Assembly: GCF_001457615.1 (NCBI RefSeq) | Contig: NZ_LN831024.1 | Span: forward strand, 3,990,001-4,022,000 | Direction: 5' to 3' | DNA length: 32,000 nt | Source: Pseudomonas aeruginosa | GTDB taxonomy: Bacteria; Pseudomonadota; Gammaproteobacteria; Pseudomonadales; Pseudomonadaceae | Shown: in pieces, positions 4,450 to 22,033 of the stretch | How positions within the stretch are numbered: the first letter of the stretch is position 1 | Layout of the letters: every line of letters begins with the position of its first letter | Notes under the pieces: generated by a model | The model's input: only the letters and a program-made list of their open reading frames with translations | What the model was told of the DNA's origin: nothing | Database searches by the model: none | Program-made: the position numbers and the translations under genes

Positions 4450-5040
4450 ATGAACCCTCGTGAACATGGAAAACGATCGATCGATAACGAGACACGCAGT
4501 GCGCTCAAGCACCAACGCCCAGCGGTCATCTGGCTGACCGGGTTGAGTGGCGCTGGAAAATCCACTATTGCGAATGCCCTGGAACTAGCGCTTTTCGAAC
4601 AGAAGAAACATACGTTTCTCCTGGACGGCGACGATCTCCGCCTTGGCCTGTGCCGAAACCTTGGCTACAGCGACGAAGATCGCACCGAGAACATTCGAAG
4701 AATCGCGGAAGTGGCAAAGATCCTGCTGGAAGCCGGCCTTATCGTGATCGTGGCAACCATCTCGCCATTTTCGCGAGACAGGCGCCTCTCTCGGGAACTT
4801 ATCGGCATCGAGCATTTCATCGAGGTCTTTGTCGACACGCCGCTCTCGGAATGCGAGAGAAGAGATCCCAAAGGCCTGTACAGGAAAGCACGCTCGGGCA
4901 AGATAGAAAACTTCACCGGGATCGACTCGATCTACGAAACGCCCGCACAGCCGGACATAACGATCGATACACTTTCAGAAGACCCCAACCTGGCGGTGAA
5001 GCGAATCATTTCCTACCTGGAGACGAACCAGCCAGCCTGA
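4450..5040 (+). CDS. cysC: adenylyl-sulfate (APS) kinase
   Basis: P-loop WLTGLSGAGKSTIA, then LDGDDLRLGL, ISPF, and the PKGLYRKARSG..FTGIDS.YE.P signature of APS kinases. GC is lower than the flanks. It is the only + strand gene of the central block. Confidence 0.9.
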   Translation: MNPREHGKRSIDNETRSALKHQRPAVIWLTGLSGAGKSTIANALELALFEQKKHTFLLDGDDLRLGLCRNLGYSDEDRTENIRRIAEVAKILLEAGLIVIVATISPFSRDRRLSRELIGIEHFIEVFVDTPLSECERRDPKGLYRKARSGKIENFTGIDSIYETPAQPDITIDTLSEDPNLAVKRIISYLETNQPA

Positions 5041-5096: not shown

Positions 5097-6320
5097 TCAG
5101 GGACACCCCGTCTCGCTGCCGAACAGACGGGACAGGTTTCGCAAGGGTTTCGTGAAACGCCAGAAGCGACTGTCCAATATAGCCATCAAACGGGCGTGAG
5201 TATCATCGCGATCTATCTGCGTGCGCCGTAGCAAGTTGTCCGTTTCGGCGAGAGTGCGCTGAGCGGAAACAAGCTCTTCGCGACACGCCGACAATCGCCG
5301 AGAAAGTTCCCGCATGGCTCGTTCGTTCTGTTCGTCCCGAGCACCGGCCTCAAGCAAGCGATCTCTCAGTCCATCGTTCAGTTGCCTCTGTGCGGTACAG
5401 CTCATGGCCAGGTCAGCCACCTGCTCGCTGAACCGCGTCATGCTCTCGTTGTGGGACGAAGCCGATTGCCAGAGTTGCCTGTCCAGCTCCCCCACGTACT
5501 CCAGCAACGGCATCGCTCTGCTGAATTCCCGCTCCAGGCCTTTCCACCCTTCGATGTCGAACCGGTCCACGGCAAGCTGCTGCAGTGCCTCATGCACCTC
5601 GAGCAGCGCCTGAAAGCTTCCCGCTGCGGCAGCCAACGCGCTCGCATCATGGGATGAGTGACGCAATGCGACATCCAGGACATCACCGACGAAGCGGGCA
5701 CAAGCCGACTCGTCCACCGGCAAGGAAAGTCGATGGCCAATACGGCCCAGTTCCTGTTGCGGCAGAGCCAGCAATCGATCGTAGTCGACCACCACGGCCC
5801 CCTTGTGGAGCGCCCACTGCATCGAGCGACAGGAGTGTTCGTACCAGAGCATCAGGCTCTTTTCCCGACTCAAGTGGTCACGGGCAGCAAGAGACTCCGC
5901 GACACTAAGAGGATGGCGAGCCGCAATGACATAGTCGACCCATAGCCCCAATGCATCGAACGCGGCTTGCCAGATCGGCATCAGACGCGGCATACGCGGA
6001 TCCTTGATACCCAGCAGCGCCTTGCCTGCCAGTAGCTCAGTCAAAAGCGCCATGGCCTGCTGGACGATCTCTTCGAATCGCTCGACGCCCAGCACCCGGC
6101 GACTGGACAACCCGACGTCGCCCGACGAAAACCCGCACAGGGCCAGGACTCTGTCATTGAAAGCCACCAGGCGGGCATCTTCCCAGTATCCCTTGGGGTT
6201 GTCCGGCCTGGGTGGGATCAGATTCTCGCCAAACTCAACCCCGAGCGCCTCGAGTCCGGCGGAAAGTACGCTCGTACCGGAGCGATGCATGCCGAGAATC
6301 ACCACCACCCTGGGCGTCAT
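5097..6320 (-). CDS. PAPS-type sulfotransferase domain fused to a ~110-aa C-terminal coiled-coil region (407 aa)
   Basis: A 5'-PSB-like motif VVILGMHRSGTSVLS sits at the N-terminus, and a 3'-PB-like motif reads IAARHPLSVAES. The C-terminal third (about 5166-5495) is heptad-like and rich in charged residues and Leu (ELDRQLWQS...RELSRRLSACREELVSAQRTLAETDNLLRR). The tail ends RFWRFTKPLRNLSRLF. I prefer the ATG at 6320 because of the AGGGAGG 7-8 nt upstream; an alternative ATG is at 6341. Confidence 0.8.
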   Translation of the reverse strand: MTPRVVVILGMHRSGTSVLSAGLEALGVEFGENLIPPRPDNPKGYWEDARLVAFNDRVLALCGFSSGDVGLSSRRVLGVERFEEIVQQAMALLTELLAGKALLGIKDPRMPRLMPIWQAAFDALGLWVDYVIAARHPLSVAESLAARDHLSREKSLMLWYEHSCRSMQWALHKGAVVVDYDRLLALPQQELGRIGHRLSLPVDESACARFVGDVLDVALRHSSHDASALAAAAGSFQALLEVHEALQQLAVDRFDIEGWKGLEREFSRAMPLLEYVGELDRQLWQSASSHNESMTRFSEQVADLAMSCTAQRQLNDGLRDRLLEAGARDEQNERAMRELSRRLSACREELVSAQRTLAETDNLLRRTQIDRDDTHARLMAILDSRFWRFTKPLRNLSRLFGSETGCP

Positions 6321-6341: not shown

Positions 6342-8117
6342 TCAGTGTTTCCTGATCTTTTGCCAAAGCGCCTTCGCCCCGAATGTGCGCAAGAAGAACA
6401 CCCCCTTCGCGCATCGCTCCAGGAATCTTGAAAAACGGCCGTGCTTCTGGATATCCAGCCGGCAGCGCAATCCGTTTGCCAGTCGGTAGGACGCCCATTG
6501 CATGGACAGCCTGGCCGCCCCCAGGGCAGGCACCGGACTATCCGTGCAAACGCCGCATGGAGTCGAAACCGGCACGCGTTCCAGCAACTCCCGCAAACGC
6601 CGCTCGAAAAGAGACAAGGTGAATGCTTCGCGGATGCGGCGTGCGGAGTTCTGCCCCATCCGCCTCAGCATTTCCGGTTCGCGCATGAGGCTCTCGAGCC
6701 TAGCGGCGTAATCCCTGGCCTCTCGTTCGGCATCGCGCCGCGGAACAAGGAAGCCGCAGTGGGCAGAGACCAGTTCTGCGTGACCGCCGACATCGGCTGC
6801 GACTATGGCCATTCCGCACGCCATCGCCTCGTAGAGAACCAGTGCGATACCTTCGCCGGCCGATGGCAGGAAAAATATATCGGAGGCCTGGAACAACTCG
6901 CGCAACGCAGCCTCGTCCTGCCAGCCCAGCATCCGTACCCGCCCGGCCAAGCCATGGCGCCGGAGGTCGTTCCGCAGCTCCCCTGCCAGCTCGCCATCGC
7001 CCAGCACCAACGCGACGAAATCACTACCACGGCGCGCCAACTCGCCAAGGCTGGCGGCAAACAGCTCCGGTCGTTTCTGCGCGCAGAGCCGCCCCGCATA
7101 GGCGATCACTACGCACTGCGGAGCTATTCCCAGGCGCGCCCGGACCTTCGCGCGCGTCAGGCTGTCGGGTTTCCACGAGTCCACATCGGCGAACCAGTGC
7201 AACACCTCGACCTTGCTCGCCTCGACGCCACGGTCGAGCAGCCAGTGGCGCAGGTGCCCGGATACGACCCAGTGCCTGTCCAGCAAGGCAGTGCATCGAG
7301 CGGCTCTACCCGGATGGCCGCCATCGTCCCAGCCCTCCTCCATATGATTGAGGTCGACCACGGGCAGGCCCGGGTAGCGGGTCCGGACGTACCCCAGCAC
7401 GTCATAGGCGAATGCAGAGTTGGAAAGCAGCATCAGGTCGGGTTGTCGACTGTCCACCAGATAAGCAAGGAAGCCGCAAGCTTTCTCGGCAGACAGAAAG
7501 TCCGGAAGCACCCAGACATCCGCAGTGAGCGCGGTAAAACGATCCCGCCACCGATGCTCGGCCGCCAGGCTGGCGACCACCGTCAGCATCCAGCCCTCCC
7601 GGGCCAAGGCTCGAAGCAGATCCAGATTGCAACGATCCGCTCCGCCTGGCTCAAGCCAGGGCGCCAGCAGCAACAGGCGCTTTCCCGGGGCCTTAGGCAA
7701 GCTCCCCGGCGCCAGCATGGCCGACGAGCAAGGCTGCCTGCGCCCGTTCAGCCTTGCGCCAATACGGCCCTCGGGCAACGACCTGCGACTGACGAAGAGG
7801 TCGCCGCGTCGCGCATCTTCGCGGAGTTCGACCCACGGCAGGGTCGGTCGGGACAGCAGGAACCAGATCGCCTCTTCCAGAGCAGTCGCCCTCAGGGCTG
7901 CCGGTGCTCGCGGCAAGTACAGTACCGCCATCCCCTCTACCGGAAGACAGTCACTGTCCACTCCTGGGCAATGAATCCAGCGCCAGCGTTTCAGCGTCTG
8001 CGTCTCGAGAAATGCGGCGATTCGTTCGAGCTCCTCCACGCTGCAATCGCAGGCCGTGAGGATGGACAGCAACGGCACGGCATCGGCGACGGGACCTCGC
8101 GAAAGAACCTTCACCAC
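6342..8117 (-). CDS. GT4-family (GT-B) glycosyltransferase with ~150-aa N-terminal extension of unknown function (591 aa)
   Basis: The C-terminal half shows GRLCAQKRPELF...LGDGEL... and an E-x7-E motif, EGIALVLYEAMACGMAIVAADVGGHAELV. The GTG start (8117 or 8114) overlaps the upstream stop (GTGA). Confidence 0.85.
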   Translation of the reverse strand: MVKVLSRGPVADAVPLLSILTACDCSVEELERIAAFLETQTLKRWRWIHCPGVDSDCLPVEGMAVLYLPRAPAALRATALEEAIWFLLSRPTLPWVELREDARRGDLFVSRRSLPEGRIGARLNGRRQPCSSAMLAPGSLPKAPGKRLLLLAPWLEPGGADRCNLDLLRALAREGWMLTVVASLAAEHRWRDRFTALTADVWVLPDFLSAEKACGFLAYLVDSRQPDLMLLSNSAFAYDVLGYVRTRYPGLPVVDLNHMEEGWDDGGHPGRAARCTALLDRHWVVSGHLRHWLLDRGVEASKVEVLHWFADVDSWKPDSLTRAKVRARLGIAPQCVVIAYAGRLCAQKRPELFAASLGELARRGSDFVALVLGDGELAGELRNDLRRHGLAGRVRMLGWQDEAALRELFQASDIFFLPSAGEGIALVLYEAMACGMAIVAADVGGHAELVSAHCGFLVPRRDAEREARDYAARLESLMREPEMLRRMGQNSARRIREAFTLSLFERRLRELLERVPVSTPCGVCTDSPVPALGAARLSMQWASYRLANGLRCRLDIQKHGRFSRFLERCAKGVFFLRTFGAKALWQKIRKH

Positions 8118-9333
8118 GCCGTCCTGCCCACGGAAAACACCTTGGAGATTCCGCGGGTCCGCCTGAAGTTATCGATGAAAGCCGACCATTGCCGCTCGTG
8201 CAGCAGGTCGTCCAGCCAGTAGATGGCGCTCGCCCTCTCCAGCAGCCAGCCCGGGAGTTTTCGGCACCCACCGGCAATGACGAAAACCGTCGAGGACGCT
8301 GGCAGCTCATCGAATTGTCGACGCCATGCGTTCCAGTCCTCGGTGAGCGGCGCGTCGGCCACCACGGCTACCGCATCGGATATGACGGCGTTGTATTGGT
8401 CGGCGCGGGAGAGGTTGAGCAGAGGAGGATATGCCCAGCAGTCGTAATAGCCTTGCCGCTGCGCTCGAAGAAATGGACTCCCTCGATAGAAGCGAGGATG
8501 GCGAGTCCGCATGCGCTTGTAAGAACTCAAGGCATGACGTTTGCCGGTCTCCAGTCTGGAGCCGACCTGGCGGTGATAGAACAACAGGGGTTCCCTGATC
8601 AGCCTGCCTCGCACCCCACATCCGACCAGGGCGATCCAGAAATCCCAATCCTCGAACTGTGCCTGCCTGGCTTCGTCGAAACCGCCTACCGCCAGCCAGT
8701 CATCGCGATGAAAGATCGCAGAGACACAGAACGGATTGAAGTAACGCAACAGTCCGGGATGAAAGCCGGCGGAACGATGCAGCCGCTGCTCCTCTCCCAC
8801 CACCTGGACCCAGCTGTACGCCAGGCGGACGCCAGAGTTTCCCTCCAGCAAGACCAGGCACTTTTCCAAATAGGTGGACGCCAGCCAGTCATCCGCATCC
8901 AGGCAACAGATATAACGCCCCTCGCCCGCGCCACACCGGCATTCCGCGCTGCGGATGGCCCACGATTGGGCTGGCGCAGGAGCGTCATGCCGGGCTCCTG
9001 GAGAGCCTCGAGGAGGTCCAGGGTCGAAGGGTCATCAGAACCATCGTCGACCAGAATGATCTCGAAGTCCTGGAAGCTCTGCCGGGCCAGGCTATCAAGC
9101 GCGCGCCTCAAATACCTCCCATGGTTGAAGCAGGGAATGACCACGCTCAGCAGGGGCTTCTGCGGATCCCACGGAGTGGCGTGTCCGGAAACCTGCCGGA
9201 GCGCCGAGGCCGAACCGATATCGAGGACAAGATGGACCAGGAGCCTTCCCTTCTCTCCCAGCCACGAACGAAAAGCAGGCGGTAGGGAAAATAGCAGACG
9301 TTGCAGAAAATGGGCCGACCTCACGCCCTTCAC
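8111..9333 (-). pseudogene. GT2-family glycosyltransferase interrupted by a -1 frameshift (two ORFs, 8686-9333 and 8111-8869)
   Basis: The upstream ORF carries LLSVVIPCFNHGRYLRRALDSLARQSF, EIILVDDGSDD and PSAARNAGVARARG. The expected continuation RYICCLDADDWLASTYLEKCLVLLEG... is in the other frame. The switch maps to the C4 run at 8918-8921 (G4 on the coding strand). One extra G would restore a 407-aa protein. Confidence 0.75.
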
Positions 9334-10813
9334 CTGGACACCGGTTCGGTTTCCATGGAGACCTCTTGCTCAGGCCGCACGCCCCCAGGCAGGTAGCCGG
9401 GTATGTTCCTGGCCGCATCCCTGAATGCGGCCCAGCCATGACGTCGCGTCAGCAACTCGCGGGCGCGTTTCACCCGTCTCGCCGTCTCCCCGGGATTGCC
9501 CAGCGCACTCCTGATTGCCCTTGCGAACTCGCCGGCATCGGCGTCAGCGCCGACCAGATAGCCCGTTTCGGTATTCAGGAACTCAGCGATACCCCGACGT
9601 CGGGGGCGACTATGGGCAGCCCTGCAGCAGTGGCTTCGAGCAGGATGTTCGGCAAGCCGTCATAGCGAGAGGTATACAGCAACATCGCATATCGCCCCTG
9701 CCGAGCCAGGGCCTGGAAGGAGTCGTAACGCCCATGAAGCCTGACATTCGGCAGGCGTCGCAGCTTCCTCTGGGTTTCTCCCCTGCAAGCAGGATCGACC
9801 TCGCCGTGGACTTCGAACAGGTATTCGGGAAGCGCCAGGGCAATCTCGTAGAGCAGGTCCGGCCTTTTCTGCGGCGAGATACGGCTGGCCCAAAGAATCG
9901 TCGAGCCTGCGGTCGGAATCGCCTCTGCATGGTCGCTGGCGGGAAAGTAGAGCCCATGCATGAGCTCCGGCGGAATGCCGTCCCGCTCGTGAATCTGTTG
10001 GAGGAAGGTCCGGTTATCCGAAAGCAGGCCCGCCAGGTGCATCCAGGACCGTGGGAGGAACTCGCTGGCATAGCCGCAGCGAACCGCATTGCCGTCCAGG
10101 TCGTCGCAAAAGACGCTGGCGTAAATCCGCTTACCCTCGAACGTCAACGTCTTGCCATGCCGCTCGAGCAGTTCCCAGGCCAGTTGCGAGTTGATGATGT
10201 GGATACTCCTGGCAGGACATTGCAGCAAAAGGCGCAGCAGTACCAGGCGCCGGTCCTCCTCGCCAAGCAGATTGCCCAGGCGTCCGAACTCCACCACCCG
10301 AACCTCCGCCGGAAGCCGGTTGAGCCAGGGAGACACCACATCCCGCGTGACCACTACCGTCACCTTCACGCCCATCTCGGCGCATAACCGCACATGATGC
10401 AGGATTCCCAGGTCAGCGCCACCACGCTGCAAATGCGGGACGAGGAAGACCATATCCGGCGCATATTCGATGAAGTCCGCCAGACATCCCCGGTACAGTT
10501 GCGCCGGTCCGTTATCTATCGGGGCCTTCCAGGAAGTGTAAACGCGCAGCTTCGCCGCCGTGGGATACAGGGCAGGCTCGATCCGGGCCAACGCCTTCAT
10601 TTCGTCGACTATCCATGGCGGCAGCGCCATCGGAGAGGGTGACGGTACGACGACTGCCTCCTTGAGCAACCAGCCCTTCAAACGGTCGCAGACCAGTATG
10701 AAGCGTTGTAGTTGGCGCTCGGAGAGCACCCGCCGCAACGATCCAAGAATAGGTGGATAGGCTGTGCGAGCGAAGCTGGCCGCACGAGCTTTCAGTCTGC
10801 CGTTCAGGCTCAT
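9330..10813 (-). pseudogene. GT4-family glycosyltransferase interrupted by a -1 frameshift (ORF 9575-10813 plus out-of-frame tail to 9330)
   Basis: The ORF ends ...YDGLPNILLEATAAGLPIVAPDVGVSLSS*. The canonical continuation (DVG)GIAEFLNTETGYLVGADADAGEFARAIRSALGNPGETARRVKRARELL... reads in the next frame. The switch is at the C4 run 9592-9595. The restored frame is 494 aa and ends at TGA 9330-9332, overlapping the GTG start of the next gene (GTGA). Confidence 0.75.
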
Positions 10814-10909: not shown

Positions 10910-11638
10910 CTAGTGATCGAAACACCGTCCATCGAAGAATCGTCCGGGGCGAACCACTGCGTTCAGCGCGCCCATGGCGGCCAGCATCGATGCTTCCTTG
11001 CGGCGATAGAACAGGCAGGTGCCGCTAGCCAGGGTGTGCTTCCGACCGGACGCAATCACCTCGAGATTCCAATGCCAATCTTCATAACCGAAGCCGGATT
11101 TCCCGACTCGGGTCTCCAGGTATGGAAGCTCCTGGAATACGGCTTTCTCGGCTACGACAACGGAAACCCATGGGTGATGCTTGAAGCAACTTTCCACGGG
11201 ATAGTCTTCGCTCAGTTGATCTACCGAACGCCCCAGCAAATGGCAGGCTCCATGGCTCACCGTGTACTCGGGATGGACCACGACGCCATTGCCCTTCTCG
11301 GATACCACCTGCAGGGCTTCGACCAACCAGTTCGCCGAGCAGTAGTCGTCGCCATCCAACACCCCCACCGTGGACGCATCCGCGCTATCGATCCCGGCGT
11401 TCCGGGAAAGCCCGAGATCACCATGCTCGACCTGAAGGACCTTGTCGCCCTCGCGCAGGACCGGATGCTGCCTGACGATTCGCCGAGTCGTTTGCGAGGC
11501 GCGGTCGAGCACCGCCACCAACTGCACGGAAACCCCATGGTGCGACGCGAATTCACGCATGCGTTGAAAACCCAGCAGGCTCCAATGCGCCAGCACGTCT
11601 TCCGCATGGAAATTCATGATTAAACTGATATCCGGCAT
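10910..11638 (-). CDS. small GT2-like (GT-A fold) glycosyltransferase (242 aa)
   Basis: Motifs are ISLIMNFHAED, GDLGLSRNAGI and a DxD-like VLDGDDY. I prefer the ATG at 11638 because of the GGGAGAA 7 nt upstream and because it lies just after the upstream stop. The ORF-track start at 11683 would overlap the upstream gene. Confidence 0.7.
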   Translation of the reverse strand: MPDISLIMNFHAEDVLAHWSLLGFQRMREFASHHGVSVQLVAVLDRASQTTRRIVRQHPVLREGDKVLQVEHGDLGLSRNAGIDSADASTVGVLDGDDYCSANWLVEALQVVSEKGNGVVVHPEYTVSHGACHLLGRSVDQLSEDYPVESCFKHHPWVSVVVAEKAVFQELPYLETRVGKSGFGYEDWHWNLEVIASGRKHTLASGTCLFYRRKEASMLAAMGALNAVVRPGRFFDGRCFDH

Positions 11639-11654
11639 AAGGGTTCTCCCGGTT

Positions 11655-13361
11655 CTACAAGACGTAGTGGAATCGCTCGGCAACGTCGCAGACTATGTTG
11701 GCAACCAGCTCCTGCTCGTCCGGCGCCAGCCCCTTGCTCCATGCCACAGGCTCGTCGAAAGGCAAGGGGCGGTTGTTTCGCAGAGCGGCCAAGGTCGTTT
11801 GCGGCGCCTCGACGAAGTCCTCGCAGCGCAACAACTGGACGTAATCCCCGGCGTCCTCCAGTTGCAGTGCCAGGTAACGCCACCACAGAGCACGCCGGAC
11901 AGCTAGGTGGTCGGTATCGGCAATGGCCAGCAGTGCCTTGCGCTGCCATCCCGTGAGGGCCAGGTCATCGGGACATCCGAACGGCTGGCGTTCGACGGCA
12001 GCCTGGCGCAGGTGCTCGAAGGTGTTCGCCCAGGAGTTCAGGGTGTCGTAGGGATGACGGATGGTTGCGATCAGCAACGCCGTCGGCATGACCTTGCGGA
12101 TCAGGGGCAGCCGGGCGATATAGGCAAGCGTGTTCTTCGTTCCCAGGTGAAACGAAGCCCCCCGCACCTCAGCGAAATAGTCGCTGGACTGATCGTTGCC
12201 CCTGGCAGTGTCGTCGACCAGGCGGCCATTCACATGCTTGTTCGGCACGGGCCTGCCCGCCAGGATGTCGCGACGTAACTCTGCGTAGTAGCGTGGCAGT
12301 CCCCAAGGAAGAGGCGAGAGTTTCAGCGCTTCGAATACCTGAGGAGGTTCATTGAGCACCACGGTGTCGGGCTGCTGGGAGAGCAGACGGCATAGATGGC
12401 TGGTTCCGCTCCGGGGAATCCCGGTGATCACCAGGTCCTGTCCGGCCTCGACAGTGCCGGTGGAATCACCTTCCGAGAAAGCCAGCCGAGGCGCAGGAGC
12501 CAGGATTGCTTTCTTCCAGTTGGCATCCAGCGCAAGCACTTCGCGCAGCTCAGGGAAACGCTTGGCCAGTTCGTCCAGTTCGGCCCATAGCGAACGCTCG
12601 CGGACAAGTGTGTCGAGAGAATGGTAGTGGCAGAAGAAGGGCGGTAGGGACGCAGCGGATAGCGGCTTGATATGAAGCGGATAATTGAACCGTTCGCTGA
12701 GCGCTCTCGTCTTGTAGTTCAACGCGTGCAGAGCGACGGGTAGCGTCAGCTGGTCCAGCCAGGGCATCTTGTTGGTGATCAGCGGGTCCGCATGGACGCG
12801 TTCGGCGAGCCTGTACCAGACTTCGGCGAAACGCCTGGCATCACGTACCAGGATAAAGCCAGCGTTATAGTACGCAGGCATCGCTTCCCCGGAACAAGTG
12901 GTCACTACCCGATCTCCAGGCAATGCCGATCCCGCATGGGCGTATATGCGTTGCCAGTAATCGTTCTGTTTTGCCACCAATGCCATATCGGCAGGTTTGA
13001 GTGCCGCGTCGAAACGACAAAGCATGTCAGCTTCGAATGCATCGACACAGATCATGTCACTGTCGAGAAACAACGTATGCCCAACAGCCGGCCCCAGCGC
13101 CAACGCCGCGAACTTGTTGCCTATTGGATACTCTGGCCCGAAAGGACTATCCATAGGCAAAAGAGGAATGCCCAAACGTTCATATAAGCGTCGGGATGCA
13201 TCGCTTGGCACACCCCAGTCAGCCTTTCCCGATGGACATGCGGCAATGATATCCATGGAAAAGCCAAAGCGTTTGCGTAGAGAAGCCGCCAACACGGCAG
13301 ACTTGATTTCCAACTCGCCGGCGTGGACGACGAATACCATGGTCAAAGACGATGACATCAT
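11655..13361 (-). CDS. bifunctional-looking protein: N-terminal GT8-like glycosyltransferase domain + C-terminal sulfotransferase domain (568 aa)
   Basis: The N-terminal domain (about 12480-13361) has the DxD motif LFLDSDMICV and a GT8-like YYNAGFILV. The C-terminal domain (about 11655-12479) has the 5'-PSB motif ITGIPRSGTSHLCRLL and the 3'-PB motif IATIRHPYDTLNSW. The ATG at 13361 overlaps the upstream stop (ATGA). Confidence 0.8.
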   Translation of the reverse strand: MMSSSLTMVFVVHAGELEIKSAVLAASLRKRFGFSMDIIAACPSGKADWGVPSDASRRLYERLGIPLLPMDSPFGPEYPIGNKFAALALGPAVGHTLFLDSDMICVDAFEADMLCRFDAALKPADMALVAKQNDYWQRIYAHAGSALPGDRVVTTCSGEAMPAYYNAGFILVRDARRFAEVWYRLAERVHADPLITNKMPWLDQLTLPVALHALNYKTRALSERFNYPLHIKPLSAASLPPFFCHYHSLDTLVRERSLWAELDELAKRFPELREVLALDANWKKAILAPAPRLAFSEGDSTGTVEAGQDLVITGIPRSGTSHLCRLLSQQPDTVVLNEPPQVFEALKLSPLPWGLPRYYAELRRDILAGRPVPNKHVNGRLVDDTARGNDQSSDYFAEVRGASFHLGTKNTLAYIARLPLIRKVMPTALLIATIRHPYDTLNSWANTFEHLRQAAVERQPFGCPDDLALTGWQRKALLAIADTDHLAVRRALWWRYLALQLEDAGDYVQLLRCEDFVEAPQTTLAALRNNRPLPFDEPVAWSKGLAPDEQELVANIVCDVAERFHYVL

Positions 13362-14635
13362 TGGGTAGCCCGGGTCTCGCAGCAGAACGAAACCGGCTCG
13401 AATGCCCCATGCAGATTCACCACTGCATCGAAGCACTTGGGCGAATTGAAGACCCTGAATATCGCCGCATTGACCTGTTTATCCATGAGTTCGCAAACGG
13501 ACTCCGACAAAGAGTTCTCCAGACGAAACGTCAAGGCGTATTCGCCGGCCTGCAAGTCGCAGTCGAAGCTGATGCGTATTCTCAAGCGCCCGTCAGGCTC
13601 GACATTCAAAGCCTTGCCCAGCAATAAATTGTTTATGCCATAGAGGTTGTAACCGCGCTGGTCACGGATAGTCAGGGTGATCTTTGGGTGCTCCGGGACG
13701 GGTAGGTCAAATTGCACAAGTACCTCGACCCAGACACGTTCGCCCGAATCGAAGTAATCCCGGGCTTCGTCAAGTACGCCCATGCGGATGGATAGAAACC
13801 TGCCCTGCCCATTTCCATATGCAATTACCGAGTTCCCGTGTTCGCCAGAAGCGATCAGGCTTCCTGAGCGGACTTCCGCCCGCTGTGTCTCTATACTGTC
13901 CCGCAGATAGAGTTCCGTGGCTGTTTCACAGTCGCCATCGAATATCACTCTACCTTTGGATAGATAGATCGCTCGACTACAGTAACTCTTGATCAACTGT
14001 ATATCGTGGGAGACCAGCAGGATGGTGATGCCTTTCAGCAGCAGTTCTTCAAGCCGGTTCAGGCATTTGAACTGAAACGCGGCGTCACCTACCGCCAGGG
14101 CCTCGTCCACGATCAGCACATCGGCATCGACATATGCCGCAATGGAGAAAGCCAAACGCACGAACATACCGCTCGAATATGTTCGAACCGGACGATCGAT
14201 GAACTCACCGATATCGGCAAACTGGATTATCTCGTCGAGGCGTTCAGAAATTTCCTGCTCGCCCAGTCCAAGAAGCATGGCATTGAAGATTATGTTTTCC
14301 CTGCCGGTGTACTCCATGTTGAAACCGGCCCCCAGCTCCAACAGTGCCGCTACCCTTTCTGGGCGAACCACCTGCCCACTCGTAGGTCGCAAGGTACCCG
14401 CAAGTATCTGCAGCAAGGTGGACTTCCCGGAGCCGTTGCAGCCGATTACTCCAACCACCTCCCCAGGAAAAACCTGGAAACTCACATTCCGCAGAGCCCA
14501 GAATTCCGAATAAAACTTCTTTCTCTCACCCCAGATGGCCTGCAACATCCTTTGATGAGGAGCCCTGTAGACTCTAAAACCCTTGCTTATATCTACGGCC
14601 GCAAGTACCGGCGCATTACCATTCATACAACTCAC
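13358..14635 (-). CDS. Wzt/TagH-type polysaccharide-export ABC transporter ATP-binding protein with C-terminal Wzt_C-like beta-sandwich domain (425 aa)
   Basis: Walker A is GCNGSGKSTLL, the signature motif is YSSGMFVRLAF, Walker B is LIVDEALAVGD, and the H-loop is LVSHD. About 175 extra C-terminal residues (about 13361-13888) show the pattern of Wzt carbohydrate-binding domains. The start is GTG at 14635, with an alternative ATG at 14626. Confidence 0.9.
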   Translation of the reverse strand: MSCMNGNAPVLAAVDISKGFRVYRAPHQRMLQAIWGERKKFYSEFWALRNVSFQVFPGEVVGVIGCNGSGKSTLLQILAGTLRPTSGQVVRPERVAALLELGAGFNMEYTGRENIIFNAMLLGLGEQEISERLDEIIQFADIGEFIDRPVRTYSSGMFVRLAFSIAAYVDADVLIVDEALAVGDAAFQFKCLNRLEELLLKGITILLVSHDIQLIKSYCSRAIYLSKGRVIFDGDCETATELYLRDSIETQRAEVRSGSLIASGEHGNSVIAYGNGQGRFLSIRMGVLDEARDYFDSGERVWVEVLVQFDLPVPEHPKITLTIRDQRGYNLYGINNLLLGKALNVEPDGRLRIRISFDCDLQAGEYALTFRLENSLSESVCELMDKQVNAAIFRVFNSPKCFDAVVNLHGAFEPVSFCCETRATQ

Positions 14636-14645
14636 AGCGAGATCC

Positions 14646-15797
14646 CTACAACGCAGAAAGCATCGTATTGTTTATCCTGAAAACGTCATAGCGCTGTTCC
14701 GCCAACGATCTACTGGCTTCTCCCATACGTGCGATGAGCGAAGGCGACTCGATGAACTTCAACATTGCCGCGGCTAAACTCTGCGGACTCTTGATCGGTA
14801 CCAGAAACCCATTGACACCATCCAGTACCGTTTCACGACATCCCGTCCAGTCAGTCGTTATCACAGGCTTCCCCAGGGACATGGCCTCCTGACTACTTCT
14901 CGGCACACCTTCTCTATAATAGGATGGCAGCACGAATACACTCGTATTGGCCACCCATGCCTTGATGTCATGCACATGGCCAGGCCACTCCAACAAGCCT
15001 TCGACTACCCACTGGTTCATTTCCTCCCGTGACACCCTTCCTGGATTACTGTCGACGCCTCCCAAGACCAGAAAACGCGCGAGCGGACTGCGTTTTCTAA
15101 CGATTCTCGCGGCTTCCACAAAATCATAGATACCTTTCTCCTTGAGAAGACGAGCGACAAACACGAAAGTAATAGGCCGCAACACGGGAGAACTCGCGGC
15201 AAAATAATCAAGATCGACGCCTATACCCGGCAATATCAAGGCACGTCCCGTCTTGGCCAGCCGAGGGCTCACAAACAGATCGTAGTCATCCTGGTTGAGC
15301 AGAAATACACGAGACGAGAACCGAAGGACCAACCTGATCGAACAGGTCACGACATGCCTAAGCAGCTTCCGTAGAAAATGGGTATAGCCTTCTTCCGAAT
15401 AGATGAAACCAGCGCCTTCGATCATCGAATAGCGTAATCTGACACCCGTCAAAAAAGCCGCGATACCACCGTAGATAACGGGCTTTATAAAGTAACTGAA
15501 CACGGCATCGATCTTCAGCGCCCGCAGCTTGCAGATCAGACTCAGGAGTGCGTGCAACTCCTGAAAGGGATTCATGCCCGCACGTTTCAAGCTGTAGGAA
15601 ACCGGAATTGCTCCAAGCTCCGAAACTTGACGGCTTGTCACCTCGTCATAGTCTGGAGCGAAAGCGTAGACCTTCGCTCCTCGACGTACGACCTCTCGAA
15701 TGAAATCGCCACGAAAATTGTAGATTGAAAAAGCCTGATTGGAGATCAGCGCAAGGTTGCTAAAAGGCAACCCATCGACAACAGCGGCGTGATTCAT
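14646..15797 (-). CDS. GT4-family glycosyltransferase (383 aa)
   Basis: The E-x7-E region reads LPSYYREGVPRSSQEAMSLGKPVITTDWTGCRETV. The ATG at 15797 overlaps the galE stop (ATGA at 15794-15797). The 527-aa ORF-track version runs back through galE and is not credible. Confidence 0.85.
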   Translation of the reverse strand: MNHAAVVDGLPFSNLALISNQAFSIYNFRGDFIREVVRRGAKVYAFAPDYDEVTSRQVSELGAIPVSYSLKRAGMNPFQELHALLSLICKLRALKIDAVFSYFIKPVIYGGIAAFLTGVRLRYSMIEGAGFIYSEEGYTHFLRKLLRHVVTCSIRLVLRFSSRVFLLNQDDYDLFVSPRLAKTGRALILPGIGVDLDYFAASSPVLRPITFVFVARLLKEKGIYDFVEAARIVRKRSPLARFLVLGGVDSNPGRVSREEMNQWVVEGLLEWPGHVHDIKAWVANTSVFVLPSYYREGVPRSSQEAMSLGKPVITTDWTGCRETVLDGVNGFLVPIKSPQSLAAAMLKFIESPSLIARMGEASRSLAEQRYDVFRINNTMLSAL

Positions 15798-16807
15798 GAA
15801 TACCCACTCGGATTGGAAACCTGCCAGCGCCAGGCATCCGCAATCATGCATTCGAGGCCCAGCCCCGCCTTCCAGCCCAACTCTCGCTCCGCCTTGGAAA
15901 CATCCGCCCAGCACTCGGCCACATCGCCTGGGCGGCGACCGGACACCGTAAAGGGAATGCGCCTGCCAGAGACTCGCTCGAAAGCTTCGATGACCTGCAA
16001 GACCGAATAGCCGGTGCCCGTCCCAAGATTCCAGACGTGGTAGCCGTGCCCCTGCCCCAGGTATTCGAGCGCCTTGGTATGTCCTGCTGCCAGGTCGCAA
16101 ACATGGATGTAGTCCCGGACTCCCGTCCCGTCGATAGTCGGATAGTCGCCGCCATGTACCGTCAACCGACTCAAACGTCCGACTGCAACCTGGGCGATAT
16201 AGGGCAGAAGATTGTTTGGGGTACCGCATGGGTCCTCACCGATGAGGCCGCTTTCATGAGCACCGATGGGATTGAAGTATCTGAGCACCGCGATGGACCA
16301 ACGCGCATCGGAGCGAGCCAGGTCATCGAGCATGTGCTCGGCAGTCAGTTTTGTCCGGCCATAGGGACTGGCCACGCCTCCCACTTTCGAACTCTCGGAT
16401 ATAGGCAAGGTGCCAGGCATCTGATAGATCGTTGCGGAAGAACTGAAGACAATCTTGAATACCCCGACCCTCTGCATGGCGCGTAGCAGCGAAATAGCTC
16501 CCTGAACGTTGCTCTCGTAATACTCCAGCGGGTCATCAACGCTTTCTCCAACAGCTTTCAACCCTGCCAGATGAATGACCGCATCAACCTTCTCATCGAT
16601 CAGCAGGCGCTCAACAAGAAGACTGTCTCTAACATCTCCCAGTACGAAGCCAACCGAATGCCCGGTTATTCTTTCCACTCGCTTTAGAGATTCCGAAGAA
16701 CCGTTGACAAGATTATCCAGAACCACAACCTTGGCGCCTTGGCCTAAGAGTTCGACCAACACATGAGAGCCAATGAATCCTGCACCTCCTGTGACCAATA
16801 CGCGCAT
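15794..16807 (-). CDS. galE: UDP-glucose (or UDP-GlcNAc) 4-epimerase
   Basis: The Rossmann motif is MRVLVTGGAGFIGSH, followed by FSSSATIY and the catalytic YGRTK (YxxxK). The full length of 337 aa is typical of GalE. GC is markedly low for this genome. Confidence 0.9.
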   Translation of the reverse strand: MRVLVTGGAGFIGSHVLVELLGQGAKVVVLDNLVNGSSESLKRVERITGHSVGFVLGDVRDSLLVERLLIDEKVDAVIHLAGLKAVGESVDDPLEYYESNVQGAISLLRAMQRVGVFKIVFSSSATIYQMPGTLPISESSKVGGVASPYGRTKLTAEHMLDDLARSDARWSIAVLRYFNPIGAHESGLIGEDPCGTPNNLLPYIAQVAVGRLSRLTVHGGDYPTIDGTGVRDYIHVCDLAAGHTKALEYLGQGHGYHVWNLGTGTGYSVLQVIEAFERVSGRRIPFTVSGRRPGDVAECWADVSKAERELGWKAGLGLECMIADAWRWQVSNPSGYS

Positions 16808-16954: not shown

Positions 16955-18760
16955 TTAGTTGCGGTTGTTACCAGCCTTGTGGTTCTCCGAGGTGGACGAG
17001 CCATCTTCGTTGAAGTTGCCTTGGGTGGTGGAGGTCATGTTGGTGATGGTGCCATTGGCAGAGCGGATCAGGCCGAGCGCCTCGCAAGTTGGGAACTCGC
17101 CTTCCAGGACCAGACGTGCGCGACCGTTGGCACCGTTCCAGTTGGTACCGTCGATACCGAAGGCCTTGGCTACTTCGGTTACGGTGTACACACCGGTTTC
17201 GTGCGCTTTCAGGGCAGTCTTCCCACTCGAGTCGGTCAGGTAGGTGCTGCCAGTCGCCGGATAACGCTTACCGTTCTGGTCGAACAGTACCCCGCGCACC
17301 TTGCCGTCCCGACCATCGTCGCTGGTGTTGGTCAGACGAATGAAGAACTGGTCGGAAACATTGGAGCCAGGCAGATTGAACAGACTGGCGACGCAACTGT
17401 TCTTCCAGAACTCGTCGAGACGGTTGCCTGCAATGGTACGGTCGACATAGCGTACGTTCTCGAAGTCGACCTTCAGATCACCCACGTCGAAACGTTGCAG
17501 CGCCTGCATCGGCACGGTGCCGGAAGCCTTCACGCAGACGTTGTAGGTCTGGTTGATATTCGAGTTGTCGAACGATACCGGCAAAGTACCGTTGCCCTGC
17601 GCATCCACTACACCTTCGATGGCGGCAGAATTCCAGAGCTTGGCGGCAGACCCCGGATTGGCGGCAAAGGCGGAGCAGTTCCCGGTGGTCAGGCCGATGT
17701 CGCTGATCCCGTTGAAGTTACCCGACAGGGTGCTGGTCACCTTGTCGCCACCGGCGAAACCAAACACGGTTCGACCCGCCTCGTTGAGCACATCCGTATT
17801 GATGCCGAGCCGTACGGCGCCCAGACGCGCATAGTTGGCACCATAATAATCGGTGTTATCGCCACCGACGGACACCGAGGTATCGAAGGAGCGATCCTGA
17901 TTGTTCAGGTTCAACGGATGCAGGACGCGATTCTGCCCATACTGGTTGGTGTTGAGAACGTCCCAGTAAACCGCGGGCAGCGAAGTGAAAATGGTCAGGG
18001 GCGGTGCAGAGTCGTTATTCGCAGGGTTGCCGGCATCGGCGCCAGTGGTGGTATCGAACTGTGCGGAAACCGTGACCTGGAAACGCAATTCGTTCAGCGG
18101 GTCGTTTTGCAGGCTCACTTTCGGATTCCAGGATCCAGCCACGAAGGTGGCATCGCCCTGAAGCGGAGCGCGCATGTTGGTGACCTTGGCAGGCTGGCTG
18201 TCCTGGCTGCTCGGCTCGCGGAAGTTGAAGAACACCACGTTGCCGCCGGTCGCGGTCTGCTTGATCATGTCGGCACCCGCCTGGTCGAGGCGCAGCTCAA
18301 GCGTGTTGTCGGTGGCGCCAGTGCCGCTGGTGATGACGAAGCCGCTACCCGCAGCCAGGGCGCCGATCTTGATCTGGTTGGCGGTCACGGCCTTGGCGAA
18401 GCGCACGACGGTACGACCAAGGGTCAGCTTGATGGTGTGGCCCGCAGCGGCATTTCCAGCCTTCACTGGATCGATGGTGTAGGTAACGCTGGGCAGGTCA
18501 AAGGTAGTTTCTTCGGACTTGTTGCCGAAAATCTCCTGAGCCAGGGTGATGTTGGCCGCCTTGCTATCGAGGTTGGCACCATTTTCCACACTCTTGCCGA
18601 CGACATAGTTGGCCTGTCCTGGTCCGTACTGCTCGGTTGCACCAGGCGAGTTCGCCTCCAGAGTGGGGCTTGTGGCAATAGCAACCACTCCGGCAGCGTT
18701 CGCGACTCCAGCAAACAGTGCCGAAGCTACAGCGGCGCTGAGTAGTGTTCTTTTGAGCAT
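16955..18760 (-). CDS. secreted or surface protein of unknown function, 601 aa, Sec signal peptide, Gly/Asn/Thr/Ser/Ala-rich
   Basis: The ATG at 18760 is preceded by AAGGAG. The signal peptide is MLKRTLLSAAVASALFAGVANA|AG. There are no further hydrophobic segments and only four Cys, and alternating polar/hydrophobic runs suggest a beta-rich fold. Many CGT, GGT, ACC and AAC codons are visible. The ORF-track start at 18895 adds 45 implausible residues. Its position fits PA1383. Confidence 0.8.
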   Translation of the reverse strand: MLKRTLLSAAVASALFAGVANAAGVVAIATSPTLEANSPGATEQYGPGQANYVVGKSVENGANLDSKAANITLAQEIFGNKSEETTFDLPSVTYTIDPVKAGNAAAGHTIKLTLGRTVVRFAKAVTANQIKIGALAAGSGFVITSGTGATDNTLELRLDQAGADMIKQTATGGNVVFFNFREPSSQDSQPAKVTNMRAPLQGDATFVAGSWNPKVSLQNDPLNELRFQVTVSAQFDTTTGADAGNPANNDSAPPLTIFTSLPAVYWDVLNTNQYGQNRVLHPLNLNNQDRSFDTSVSVGGDNTDYYGANYARLGAVRLGINTDVLNEAGRTVFGFAGGDKVTSTLSGNFNGISDIGLTTGNCSAFAANPGSAAKLWNSAAIEGVVDAQGNGTLPVSFDNSNINQTYNVCVKASGTVPMQALQRFDVGDLKVDFENVRYVDRTIAGNRLDEFWKNSCVASLFNLPGSNVSDQFFIRLTNTSDDGRDGKVRGVLFDQNGKRYPATGSTYLTDSSGKTALKAHETGVYTVTEVAKAFGIDGTNWNGANGRARLVLEGEFPTCEALGLIRSANGTITNMTSTTQGNFNEDGSSTSENHKAGNNRN

Positions 18761-19278: not shown

Positions 19279-21558
19279 TCATTCCATACGGCAGGCGCCC
19301 GGTCTATCGGAGCAGGCCAGTGTCTTGCTCAGCATGGCGCGCAGCTTTTCCGTCACTTCCCTGGCATCGGCATCACTTTCCAGCACGTAAGGCTGGATCA
19401 ACATGATGACTTCTTCACGGGTCTTCACGGCTTTCTGGCGTCCGAAGAGGAAACCGATCCCGGGAATGTCCTTCAGGAGAGGCACGCCAGCGTTGGAGTC
19501 CGTTATGTTGTCCCGAATCAGCCCCCCCATCAGCACCGACCCACCGCTTTTCAACGTAAGCGATGTTTCCAGCGACGTCCTGGAAATCTCCGGAGCGCTG
19601 ATTCCTCCGCCACTGGCCTTGCCACCGCCGCCGGAAGAACCGCCACTGTCGCTCAACTCCTGGCTGACCGTAAGATCGACCCGACTATCCGAGTAGACTA
19701 CGGGGGCGACATTCAGAATTGTGCCGGTAGAGCGGTAGGCAATTTCATTGCGCAGGTTGGTGCTTCCAGCAGTGGTGCTGTCGTCATTGACCTGGGCCGT
19801 TGGGATAGGAATATCCCGACCGACATTGATGTTGGCCTGCTCGCCGCTCTTGACCAAGATACGGGGAGTGGCGAGTACCCGGACTCGTTGATTGTCCGCC
19901 ATTGCCTGGATGGCTGCGGTATTGCCTCCGGCGGTGTTGATGACGTAGTTGAAGCCTCCTTTCCCGGCGCTGCCCTTGCTTCCGGTCGAGGTCGCGCTAT
20001 TGAAACTGCCGTTGAGCATCTCCCACTCCACGCCCAACTCCTGGGTGTCGCTGAGACTTACGCTGGCCACCGTCACCTCGATCAATACCTGGCGGGCCGG
20101 CTTGTCCATTTCCCGGAGCAAGCCCTGCATCTGCTGCCAGGTACGCGCCGCTCCTCGGAACAAGATGGCGTTTCGATTCTCGTCCTCCACTATGGTGCCG
20201 CTGCCGCTGATACCGGCCGCCAAGCCACCGAGCAAACCGTTAGCACCGTCGCCCCCCACCAACGCTGCGGCACCTGCGGCTTGCAGCAAGGGAGCCACCG
20301 CCGGTGCCGCACCATCGTCTCCGGCGCGCCTGCCACCGCCAGATCGCTTGGAAGCGCTGCTTTGCAGTCCGGAGGTGATCCCGTAGGCCCCCTCCCCGGC
20401 GAACCCCGATACCAATGCCCGCAACGACTTGGCCAGTTCGGTGACACGGGTATTGCGAGCTTCGTAGAAGAACAGTCCTTCCTTCTCCTCGCCGATACCT
20501 GCGGCAACCGCCATCGGAGCCCTGTCGACCTGCTGCGCCCACTCGCGCACCAAGTCGAGAAGTTGGCCATCGTTGGCGAAGACGATGAGGCCATTGGAAC
20601 TTTCCAGCGGTACCAGCATTATGCTGCCGACCGCTTCGCCGATACCGACGCTGTAGCCTTGCGCCGCAATCACGCTCTTGAGTTGACTGGCCATGTCGGC
20701 AGCACTGACGAAGGCCGGGTCGATACGCAGGCTGTGACGTCCACGCATGAAAGGTTGATCGAGAAGGCGGACGGCTTCGGTGGCCTGGTTGACGATGGAA
20801 GACATGCCCTTGAGCATCAAGCCACTCCGCGCACCATCGGCCATCACGCTCAGGCCGGATTTTTCGTAGGCACTGTTCAACCAGGGAATCACATCCTTGG
20901 GGTCGACGCTGTGCAACGCCACGAATTGAAATACCGGCCGATAGGCAATCGGCACACTAGGCCGTGCTTCGCCACTGATGAGAATGGGCGGCTCGTCCGG
21001 GCTGAGCCCTACCTGCTTGATCTGGAAGCGATAGATATCGCCTTGGTGGAGTATCTCCACGCCGTAGTTGACGAGCACCTGGCGCGCGACTTCGTAGACC
21101 ATCTGTGCAGTCTGCGGCTGTTCCAAACGAACGGTCACGCGATCAGTCTTTTCCTTCAGAGCGCTTTCGATCTCAAACGGCAAACCGAGGATGTTGCCGA
21201 ATACCTCGTTGATGAATGCGGCAAGCTGCACGTCCTCCACGTTCAGACTGATGTCAGCCTTCTTGTCGTCGAGGATCGCCTTGTCCATTCGATCGACTAC
21301 ACCGCCTACGATCGACCGAGGCGATGTGGGCGTGCCACTGAACTCCGTCTTCGGAACAGCCAACGATGCCGGAGCTTTCTTTCCGTCGTCGCTCACCAGG
21401 GCTACGCCCTCGGTTGCCTTGGCTTTTTCCGACTTCGCGAGCAATGGTTCGGGAAACTGCAATGGGGAAGTACTGCAACCTGCCAATAGGGCCAGACAGA
21501 CGACAATGGACAACGGGTGGCGCAAGAAGGCAAAGCTCGGCCTATGGCAAGGGTGCAT
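19279..21558 (-). CDS. secretin (GspD/PulD family) with lipoprotein signal peptide (liposecretin), 759 aa
   Basis: The N-terminus MHPCHRPSFAFLRHPLSIVVCLALLAG|CST contains a lipobox. An N0-like domain reads ISLNVEDVQLAAFINEVFGNILGLPFEI. The C-terminal secretin domain shows VLIEVTVASVSLSDTQELGVEW, VRVLATPRILVKSGEQANINVG and GGLIRDN...GVPLLKDIPGIGFLFG. I prefer the ATG at 21558; an alternative is at 21591. Confidence 0.9.
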   Translation of the reverse strand: MHPCHRPSFAFLRHPLSIVVCLALLAGCSTSPLQFPEPLLAKSEKAKATEGVALVSDDGKKAPASLAVPKTEFSGTPTSPRSIVGGVVDRMDKAILDDKKADISLNVEDVQLAAFINEVFGNILGLPFEIESALKEKTDRVTVRLEQPQTAQMVYEVARQVLVNYGVEILHQGDIYRFQIKQVGLSPDEPPILISGEARPSVPIAYRPVFQFVALHSVDPKDVIPWLNSAYEKSGLSVMADGARSGLMLKGMSSIVNQATEAVRLLDQPFMRGRHSLRIDPAFVSAADMASQLKSVIAAQGYSVGIGEAVGSIMLVPLESSNGLIVFANDGQLLDLVREWAQQVDRAPMAVAAGIGEEKEGLFFYEARNTRVTELAKSLRALVSGFAGEGAYGITSGLQSSASKRSGGGRRAGDDGAAPAVAPLLQAAGAAALVGGDGANGLLGGLAAGISGSGTIVEDENRNAILFRGAARTWQQMQGLLREMDKPARQVLIEVTVASVSLSDTQELGVEWEMLNGSFNSATSTGSKGSAGKGGFNYVINTAGGNTAAIQAMADNQRVRVLATPRILVKSGEQANINVGRDIPIPTAQVNDDSTTAGSTNLRNEIAYRSTGTILNVAPVVYSDSRVDLTVSQELSDSGGSSGGGGKASGGGISAPEISRTSLETSLTLKSGGSVLMGGLIRDNITDSNAGVPLLKDIPGIGFLFGRQKAVKTREEVIMLIQPYVLESDADAREVTEKLRAMLSKTLACSDRPGACRME

Positions 21559-22033
21559 ACAGTTTCCTTTCAAAACCCTGGGTGTTCCCATCCTGCGAGA
21601 ACGAGAAGCGGATTCCTTGTTCAGTGATGCTCTCCAGACGCTCGCCGCCAGGCAGAGTGGCGCCCGCCGCAAAACGCCGCAGAGGCCCCTCGGCGCTTTT
21701 GGCAACAAGGGCGAAGATGCCGCCTTCATCGCGGACAATGCCGCGTAGCAGCCAATCGACCTTGATTAGCGCCACTCCATCCACGCCCACCGAAACCCGC
21801 TTCGATTCAGCTTCGCGCTCCTCGTCCACGGTTCTCCCCCACCACGACATTCCAGCCAACTTGCCGGCAACCGTCGTATCAACCGCAACGGACGGAACTT
21901 CCGCCAGAACCCACTTCCGGGCTTCAGGAGTGGGCAAGGCGGAAAGATCGGCACTCGGAGCAAAGACAAGTCCGGCAAAGATGGAAGCGACCAGAAGCAG
22001 AAGATTCCAGCGAGCAAAGGCATGAGGCGTCAT
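21542..22033 (-). CDS. single-pass membrane protein with GspC-HR/PilP-like C-terminal domain (163 aa)
   Basis: The N-terminal anchor is WNLLLLVASIFAGLVFA. The C-terminal stretch WLLRGIVRDEGGIFALVAKSAEGPLRRFAAGATLPGGERLESITEQGIRFSF fits the l.L.Gi....g..A.i......r....G..lpGG..l..I....v.l pattern of secretin-binding HR domains. It overlaps the secretin start by 17 nt. Codons ending in T are frequent, which is atypical for this genome. Confidence 0.55.
   Translation of the reverse strand: MTPHAFARWNLLLLVASIFAGLVFAPSADLSALPTPEARKWVLAEVPSVAVDTTVAGKLAGMSWWGRTVDEEREAESKRVSVGVDGVALIKVDWLLRGIVRDEGGIFALVAKSAEGPLRRFAAGATLPGGERLESITEQGIRFSFSQDGNTQGFERKLYAPLP

Follow-up and report, generated by a model that had tools for sequence, protein, structure and literature searches.

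The caps that have been established experimentally on glycans dependent on ATP-binding cassette (ABC) transporters are methyl, phospho-methyl and 3-deoxy-β-D-manno-oct-2-ulosonic acid (β-Kdo) groups. WbdD, the terminator of Escherichia coli O9a and Klebsiella O3, is a stand-alone protein with a kinase plus methyltransferase head, an extended coiled coil and a C-terminal amphipathic, membrane-proximal region, and is encoded together with a Wzt having a C-terminal carbohydrate-binding domain. By contrast, Klebsiella O12 WbbB and O7 ORF6 combine terminator (a β-Kdo transferase of family GT99, or a methyltransferase-kinase), coiled coil and polymerase glycosyltransferase (GT) modules in one polypeptide. 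Klebsiella O4 ORF7 is a further coiled-coil terminator of ABC-transporter-dependent systems. Here we consider a sulfotransferase gene in a 32,000-nucleotide stretch of the Pseudomonas aeruginosa contig NZ_LN831024.1 (assembly GCF_001457615.1; forward-strand positions 3,990,001 to 4,022,000), referred to below as the window. The product shares the layout of WbdD, including the neighbouring Wzt with its carbohydrate-binding domain, but its head is a sulfotransferase without sequence homology to that of WbdD, its donor would be 3′-phosphoadenosine 5′-phosphosulfate (PAPS) with a local cysC gene, and its locus lacks wzm. A coiled-coil protein is regarded as a characteristic marker of the capping strategy in work on Klebsiella (PMC11231755).

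By analogy with these systems, we consider it slightly more probable than an even chance that the protein is a stand-alone, WbdD-like terminator with a sulfotransferase in place of the kinase and methyltransferase, and that it would sulfate the non-reducing end of a glycan for reading by Wzt_C. Sulfate is probably a new kind of chain cap. An initial sequence-only reading of the window had proposed such a terminator and held that sulfate had not been described in this role. The searchable literature, in which no link of a sulfotransferase to chain termination was found, does not contradict the latter claim, although an earlier bioinformatic prediction may exist in the 2019 terminator census of Mann, Kimber and Whitfield (Glycobiology 29:822), the abstract of which is said to have "predicted new chemistries". 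We know of no experimental demonstration of a sulfotransferase chain terminator. Searches of Protein Data Bank (PDB) sequences, with the family profile and with the Aeromonas salmonicida protein discussed below, matched no WbdD or WbbB chain, and the protein would thus work like the characterised terminators rather than belong to them by descent.

Catalytic head, helical stalk and C-terminal tail

The sequence-only reading had recognised a PAPS-type sulfotransferase domain by the strings GMHRSGTS (aa 17-24) and RHPLSVAES (aa 142-150). Both are present in the translation, and the fold is confirmed by profile and structure comparison. The Pfam Sulfotransfer_3 family (PF13469) matches the window protein below its cutoff (E 3e-4; 21.4 against 27 bits; aa 13-43 only), while many homologues pass it, and an NCBIfam scan assigned no family to the 414-aa protein. 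A profile built from 109 homologues matches solved sulfotransferases (4gox, 1.4e-6; 4gbm, 1.8e-5). The AlphaFold model of the whole protein has a predicted local distance difference test (pLDDT) score of 92.9, and all ten PDB matches found with it by Foldseek at E <= 0.001 are sulfotransferases, including 4gox, 4gbm and tyrosylprotein sulfotransferase 2 (TPST2), with a probability of 1.00. The sulfotransferase domains of CurM and OLS (4gbm/4gox) and human TPST2 (3ap3) have the fold and both PAPS-binding motifs in common with the window protein, but differ in sequence (15-20 % identity), in their acceptors, which are acyl groups on acyl carrier protein or protein tyrosine, and in having no coiled coil. 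The R-S-G-T version of the 5′-phosphosulfate-binding (5′-PSB) loop resembles the TPST loop.

Among the 109 homologous sequences, M18, H19, R20, G22 and S24 of the 5′-PSB motif and R142 and S150 of the 3′-phosphate-binding (3′-PB) motif are invariant, as are E54 and K113, the latter within K113-D-P. Since the sulfotransferase fold is matched and the PAPS-binding motifs and E54/K113 are invariant, catalytic competence is plausible from sequence and model, and an active PAPS-dependent enzyme is a reasonable reading. The convergent neighbouring gene, cysC, encodes an adenosine 5′-phosphosulfate (APS) kinase. Sulfate assimilation in P. aeruginosa runs via APS reductase, and cysC would therefore serve here mainly for making PAPS for sulfotransferases; as an indication of local PAPS supply for the sulfotransferases of the window, its adjacency is circumstantial. 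No terminator or structured RNA above background was found between the two convergent genes. PAPS-dependent sulfation of surface polysaccharides is known from rhizobial lipopolysaccharide and capsule sulfotransferases such as Sinorhizobium meliloti LpsS; in descriptions of these, they modify the polysaccharide and neither measure nor cap it.

Behind the head, the sequence-only reading had noted a heptad-like helix of about 110 residues. The model extends this to an uninterrupted helix of 128 residues (aa 263-390; pLDDT ~97), and heptad scoring, which likewise supports a coil, finds a single unbroken register from aa ~281 to ~393 that is equalled in score by 1/500 shuffles of the tail. Hydrophobic residues occupy 61 % of the a/d positions in the coil and 23 % of the other positions. 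The pattern is consistent with an oligomeric coiled coil, and the architecture that had been put forward is borne out in the AlphaFold monomer model as far as the continuous helix is concerned. At 1.5 Å per residue, the stalk would be ~190 Å (~19 nm) long.

The tail varies in both length and sequence among homologues, yet ends in a conserved S-x-S-W-R-x-T-x-P-L-R motif at the end of the coil, a feature not mentioned in the sequence-only reading. Chance would give 0.2 strict matches to this junction motif in the 5159 open reading frames (ORFs) from related loci, whereas 38 were found. The short amphipathic basic tail that had been described corresponds to RFWRFTKPLRNLSRLF (aa 392-407), which the AlphaFold model folds into short helices; the last 25 residues have a net charge of +5, and no other part of the protein reaches as high an amphipathic moment. 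By its sequence and modelled structure, this segment is a candidate membrane or partner anchor.

The gene had been placed at 5097-6320. The former boundary stands, while position 6320 corresponds to an internal methionine, Met8, and the ORF reaches 6341, so that Met1 directly abuts the stop codon (6342) of the upstream GT4 gene. Its matches among P. aeruginosa sequences reach 98 % identity or more, and a cluster comprising 842 of these has a representative with which it shares 98 % of its residues; its exact 414-aa sequence is present on 115 contigs, with close matches on many hundreds of P. aeruginosa contigs, and the databases name it only "sulfotransferase family protein" or "hypothetical protein". 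Compared with the related locus L001, the gene shows fourteen synonymous and nine non-synonymous codon differences, five of the latter in the coil. With a rough ratio of non-synonymous to synonymous substitution rates (dN/dS) of ~0.2 against this locus, the gene is, by this sequence comparison, under purifying selection.

The sulfotransferase family in other glycan loci

An exhaustive profile search recovered 13,234 family representatives (clustered at 50 % identity) at E <= 1e-30. Among the best 150 of these, 65 are of at most 600 aa and 70 of at least 800 aa, and in all of them the family match begins within the first ~42 residues. Using a scan of one genome per species, 80 loci containing relatives of the head were collected, and their ORFs were classified by BLAST, hidden Markov models (HMMs) and Pfam. 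Thirty-three proteins carry the strict junction motif; twelve of these end within 30 residues after it, like the window protein, while 21 continue for 310-1098 residues. The spacer between head and motif in these 33 relatives is of 78-737 aa (median 134), is not conserved in sequence and contains 3.5 % proline plus glycine, against 10.4 % in the head. In 30/33 motif-bearing loci the sulfotransferase is the sole protein with the motif within 10 kb.

The head-coil-motif unit also forms the N-terminus of proteins of 800-1900 aa, where it leads into two glycosyltransferase modules. A Pfam scan covered eight long fused members, among them five with the strict motif. Six of the eight have two GT modules after coil and motif (GT2+GT2, GT1+GT2 or GT2+WbsX), while one has WbsX only (L025) and, in a Paenibacillus protein (L060), no GT could be recognised behind the head. 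Further fused members found with Pfam contain GT1 and RgpF (L011) or three GT modules (L009). About half of the best family representatives share the WbbB/ORF6 format in this way, with a sulfotransferase in terminator position where the Klebsiella proteins have a β-Kdo transferase or methyltransferase-kinase, and the window protein is the unfused version. The fused head-coil-GT proteins are often encoded directly after wzm-wzt, the Wzt bearing Wzt_C.

Only tailed members are associated with Wzt: a wzt lies within 10 kb of 41/67 tailed members and of 0/15 tail-less ones (Fisher p = 1.3e-5, uncorrected for relatedness). Thirty-one of the 41 nearby Wzt proteins are of at least 380 aa, the Wzt_C domain is present in 28/28 long Wzt proteins tested, and for 20 sulfotransferase genes the distance to wzt is below 100 nt. 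A recurrent location of the family head at the N-terminal, membrane-distal end of a coil, before polymerase GTs and beside wzm-wzt/Wzt_C, is thus supported by sequence comparison.

One Aeromonas protein connects the family to an experimental system. The first ~230 residues of the 1122-aa 'WbbB' (ORF20) of A. salmonicida A450 belong to the family of the window protein (36 % identity over ~220 residues; 138 bits). This protein begins MKNNELWVVLGMHRSGTS, has an N-terminal LGMHRSGTS loop and continues after the head with coil, GT1 and GT2, being fused to the polymerase unlike the window protein. Its gene lies after a wzt with Wzt_C and a small classical sulfotransferase. Deletion of 'WbbB' abolishes the O antigen, and a sulfotransferase gene was noted in the cluster, while the N-terminal domain of 'WbbB' was not described as a sulfotransferase (PMC4483657). 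In A. salmonicida ATCC 33658 (L063, 4047-7415), this domain likewise goes undetected by Pfam at E <= 0.001.

A search with the window Wzt as query turned up a metagenomic protein of 693 aa (P0139; L088, 6313-8394), encoded beside wzm, in which the nucleotide-binding domain (NBD) of Wzt, Wzt_C and a classical sulfotransferase form one chain. Two genes downstream (L088, 9768-11366) lies a 532-aa member of the window-protein family, consisting of the head and a long coil, which is unannotated, as the gene call starts inside its LGMHRSGTS loop. Fusions of Wzt to methyltransferases occur in parallel (P0219; P0222, L092 953-3010).

In related loci, Methyltransf_24 heads too are followed by the coil-plus-motif module, and because it serves these as well, the catalytic heads appear to be interchangeable, in the manner of cartridges. 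Among proteins other than sulfotransferases, the S-x-S-W-R-x-T-x-P-L-R module occurs at L004 15212-19090 (minus strand), L016 15156-17399, L011 7026-9542 and L006 7384-8586, in settings behind Methyltransf_24, between GT4 and RgpF, and, in degenerate form, at the end of a GT2. Its distribution suggests that coil plus motif is a general junction or anchor element of glycan assembly proteins. The Gram-positive members, from Paenibacillus (L060, L061, L069 and L082), have a ~300-residue spacer, the motif and ~445 further residues without a Pfam match, and lie ~3-5 kb from two ORFs of ~600 aa that match the Wzm and Wzt-NBD queries; these are possibly S-layer or wall-glycan systems.

Gene neighbourhood in the window

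Nine minus-strand genes form a tight array from the GalE-like epimerase through the coiled-coil sulfotransferase (Table 1). Within the island (window 4001-22000), the G+C content falls to 53-62 %, compared to 65-70 % in both flanks, and the island is therefore consistent with horizontal acquisition. The order across the region is fabF2, pdxB, aceK, a short-chain dehydrogenase/reductase, an AraC regulator and the secretin, then galE to cysC and a hybrid sensor kinase, which we take to be the PA1373-PA1397 region of PAO1, the coiled-coil sulfotransferase gene presumably being the orthologue of PA1392. Literature naming the PA1373-PA1397 locus tags holds almost nothing on function.

Table 1. Position of the coiled-coil sulfotransferase, its parts and its neighbours in the window
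Feature	Coordinates	Strand	Basis or remark
Coiled-coil sulfotransferase gene, 414 aa	5097..6341	minus	ORF and translation
Sulfotransferase catalytic head, aa 10-257	5571..6314	minus	Motifs, profile, AlphaFold model, Foldseek
Putative coiled-coil stalk/ruler, single 128-residue helix, aa 263-390	5172..5555	minus	AlphaFold2 model, heptad register
Junction motif SRFWRFTKPLR, aa 391-401	5139..5171	minus	Alignment; consensus S-x-S-W-R-x-T-x-P-L-R
Basic amphipathic C-terminal segment RFWRFTKPLRNLSRLF, aa 392-407	5121..5168	minus	Charge, hydrophobic moment, model
cysC, APS kinase	4450..5040	plus	Pfam APS_kinase 1.8e-64; convergent with the sulfotransferase gene
GT4-family glycosyltransferase, 591 aa	6342..8117	minus	Pfam Glycos_transf_1 1.9e-29
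GT2 glycosyltransferase, frameshifted here	8111..9324	minus	G4 against G5 in L001 near 8921
GT1/GT4 glycosyltransferase, frameshifted here	9330..10813	minus	G4 against G5 in L001 near 9595
GT2-like glycosyltransferase	10910..11683	minus	Pfam Glycos_transf_2 1.5e-5
Second sulfotransferase, Sulfotransfer_3 at aa 335-512	11655..13436	minus	Pfam 3.1e-13; probable start near 13211
Wzt, ABC ATPase with C-terminal Wzt_C	13358..14635	minus	ABC_tran 1.6e-21, Wzt_C 4.4e-20
GT4-family glycosyltransferase	14646..15770	minus	
GalE-like UDP-sugar 4-epimerase	15794..16807	minus	
601-aa secreted all-beta protein, no assigned function	16955..18760	minus	Adjoins the cluster in related Pseudomonas
GspD-type secretin	19279..21738	minus	Conserved beside the 601-aa protein

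The ATPase with Wzt_C that the sequence-only reading had placed ~7 kb from the sulfotransferase is real, and its translation shows the Walker A, signature and Walker B motifs. Immediately downstream of wzt, a second sulfotransferase is encoded, the N-terminus of which is a weakly supported GT-A/GT8-like domain (one NCBIfam GT8 match, E 0.007) with a DxD-like LDSDMI motif; comparison with PDB sequences gave no match for this protein. It may be responsible for a cap, for internal sulfation, or for a terminal sugar plus sulfate.

The 601-aa protein has a signal peptide and, in three Pseudomonas lineages, is always paired with a GspD-type secretin beside the glycan cluster. Upstream of the secretin in P. 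schmalbachii (L087, 1-2419), three small bitopic proteins without a Pfam match are encoded, which by eye look like assembly components of the GspL/M/C or PilN/O/P type; the equivalent position in P. aeruginosa is occupied by a single 163-aa ORF (window 21542-22033).

A Wzm permease is missing. Using BLAST with the Wzm of L006 and an HMM built from the Wzm sequences of related loci (BLAST matches of at least 240 aa), Wzm was found to be absent from the window and from L001, Pseudomonas sp. BN415 (L002) and P. schmalbachii (L087), while it was detected in 43/87 records screened (the window and 86 fetched loci). When the window was scanned for polytopic membrane ORFs, the sensor kinase was the sole match; none lies in the island (4450-21738), nor in the corresponding loci of BN415 and P. 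schmalbachii. The window Wzt, which looks intact with its NBD and Wzt_C, is thus an orphan as judged by gene content, and as no Wzm is encoded, the export step is incomplete as it stands; the permease would have to come from elsewhere, unless a different mechanism operates.

Alternative readings and significance

If the protein is a terminator, the tail, with the junction motif, would dock it, oligomerised through the putative coil, at the inner face of the cytoplasmic membrane beside the polymerising glycosyltransferases, with the product of the abutting GT4 gene as the obvious partner. Growing out from the membrane, a lipid-linked glycan would then reach the sulfotransferase head only when long enough, and the stalk would in this way act as a ruler. 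Sulfation of the non-reducing terminal sugar by the head, with PAPS supplied through the adjacent cysC, would stop elongation, and Wzt_C of the Wzt from the same gene array would recognise the sulfated end for export.

The terminator logic advanced in the sequence-only reading is in part supported by the architecture of the protein and by the recurrent terminator position of the head elsewhere, and is weakened by the lack of Wzm and by the presence of the second sulfotransferase. Several observations weigh against it. Besides the absence of Wzm and of any other polytopic membrane protein encoded in the island, two one-base deletions in G5 runs frameshift the GT2 and GT1 genes of the window in comparison to the otherwise 98.7 %-identical L001, and these (at ~8921 and ~9595) may reflect sequencing error in the homopolymers, genuine pseudogenes or slipped-strand switching. 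Other loci contain two or three sulfotransferases, which together with the second sulfotransferase of the window means that at least some of the sulfation is probably internal, and a minority of related loci encode methyltransferases that could be the true cap. Cap and internal sulfation cannot be told apart from sequence, and the co-occurrence counts carry the caveat of kinship among the loci. Finally, the reported O-antigen structure of A. salmonicida contains no sulfate (PMC4483657), although bulk nuclear magnetic resonance analysis could easily miss one terminal sulfate per chain.

An alternative that we consider unlikely, though deserving of some weight, is that the window protein is a scaffolded modifying enzyme: coil and motif would tether or oligomerise it, sulfate would be added internally to each repeat, and chain length would be set by other means. 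Clusters with two or three sulfotransferases, the methyltransferases that could serve as caps in some related loci, and the stand-alone members without a tail, which imply that the head is not restricted to capping, can all be accommodated by such an enzyme. However, an enzyme held 80-350 helix residues away from fused polymerase modules would be badly placed for modifying every repeat, and only the tailed forms associate with wzt/Wzt_C (41/67 against 0/15). In the characterised systems, that position is always occupied by the terminator (PMC11231755).

It is improbable, in our estimation, that the locus falls outside the O-antigen type altogether and provides a glycan or sulfate for the secretin-exported 601-aa protein, perhaps a surface layer or adhesin that is glycosylated or anchored by a glycan, with the sulfotransferase acting in that pathway. 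P. aeruginosa, BN415 and P. schmalbachii have in common the gene order secretin, 601-aa protein, galE, GT, wzt, sulfotransferase, GTs and coiled-coil sulfotransferase, none of these arrangements includes wzm, and the 601-aa protein occurs solely in the aeruginosa/citronellolis/nitroreducens group of Pseudomonas. Its model consists of immunoglobulin-like beta domains weakly resembling pilins, adhesins and an archaeal S-layer protein, but this is a model of moderate confidence (pLDDT 71.6) with weak fold matches (template modelling score <= 0.2). A similar arrangement exists in A. salmonicida, where the S-layer gene vapA and a dedicated type II secretion system (T2SS) are inserted between wzm and wzt, after which come a sulfotransferase and the sulfotransferase-coil-GT1-GT2 protein, and the parallel between the 601-aa protein with its secretin and vapA with its T2SS is a suggestive lead. 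The 601-aa protein was rejected as a homologue of VapA, as no homology between the family and VapA is detectable (hhalign probability 6.5 %), and the island encodes no oligosaccharyltransferase or ligase. A link with the secreted protein would in any case not conflict with a capping role.

A cryptic or decaying state of a horizontally acquired island, which would leave the protein currently without a role in P. aeruginosa, is improbable as well. The low G+C content relative to the flanks, the missing wzm, the two frameshifted GT genes and the near absence of literature on the island genes fit such a fate. The sulfotransferase gene is nevertheless intact, with its close matches on many hundreds of P. 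aeruginosa contigs and a rough dN/dS of ~0.2, all genes of the reference locus L001 are intact, and both frameshifts are single-base changes in G5 runs, as is typical of sequencing error. On many P. aeruginosa contigs, wzt is annotated as a 328-aa protein without the Walker A region (P0121; L090, 2710-3987). The possibility that this apparent truncation reflects decay was rejected, since the frame further upstream is identical and stays open from a GTG start, and the short form is therefore a start-codon annotation artefact.

Returning to the capping terminator, a broader extension of this reading is improbable: in P. aeruginosa, P. citronellolis, P. nitroreducens, P. delhiensis and P. schmalbachii, a sulfate-capped glycan, measured by the ~190 Å stalk and exported by the orphan Wzt with its carbohydrate-binding module (CBM) and a borrowed Wzm, would anchor the 601-aa protein, as a Pseudomonas equivalent of the pairing of O antigen and S-layer in Aeromonas, and sulfation would be a widespread third termination chemistry besides methyl or phospho-methyl groups and Kdo. 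If a sulfate cap is real, it would add a strongly anionic termination chemistry and require a CBM that reads sulfate. A. salmonicida A450, where the O antigen anchors the virulence-associated A-layer and is known to require the fused homologue, would be a ready test system. Thousands of unannotated proteins from O-antigen, capsule-like and Gram-positive glycan loci, both "sulfotransferase family" members and giant multi-GT proteins, would also be accounted for by sulfate capping, which would moreover suggest that the pathogen P. aeruginosa, with its supposedly well-catalogued surface glycans, makes an uncharacterised sulfated polymer for its surface.

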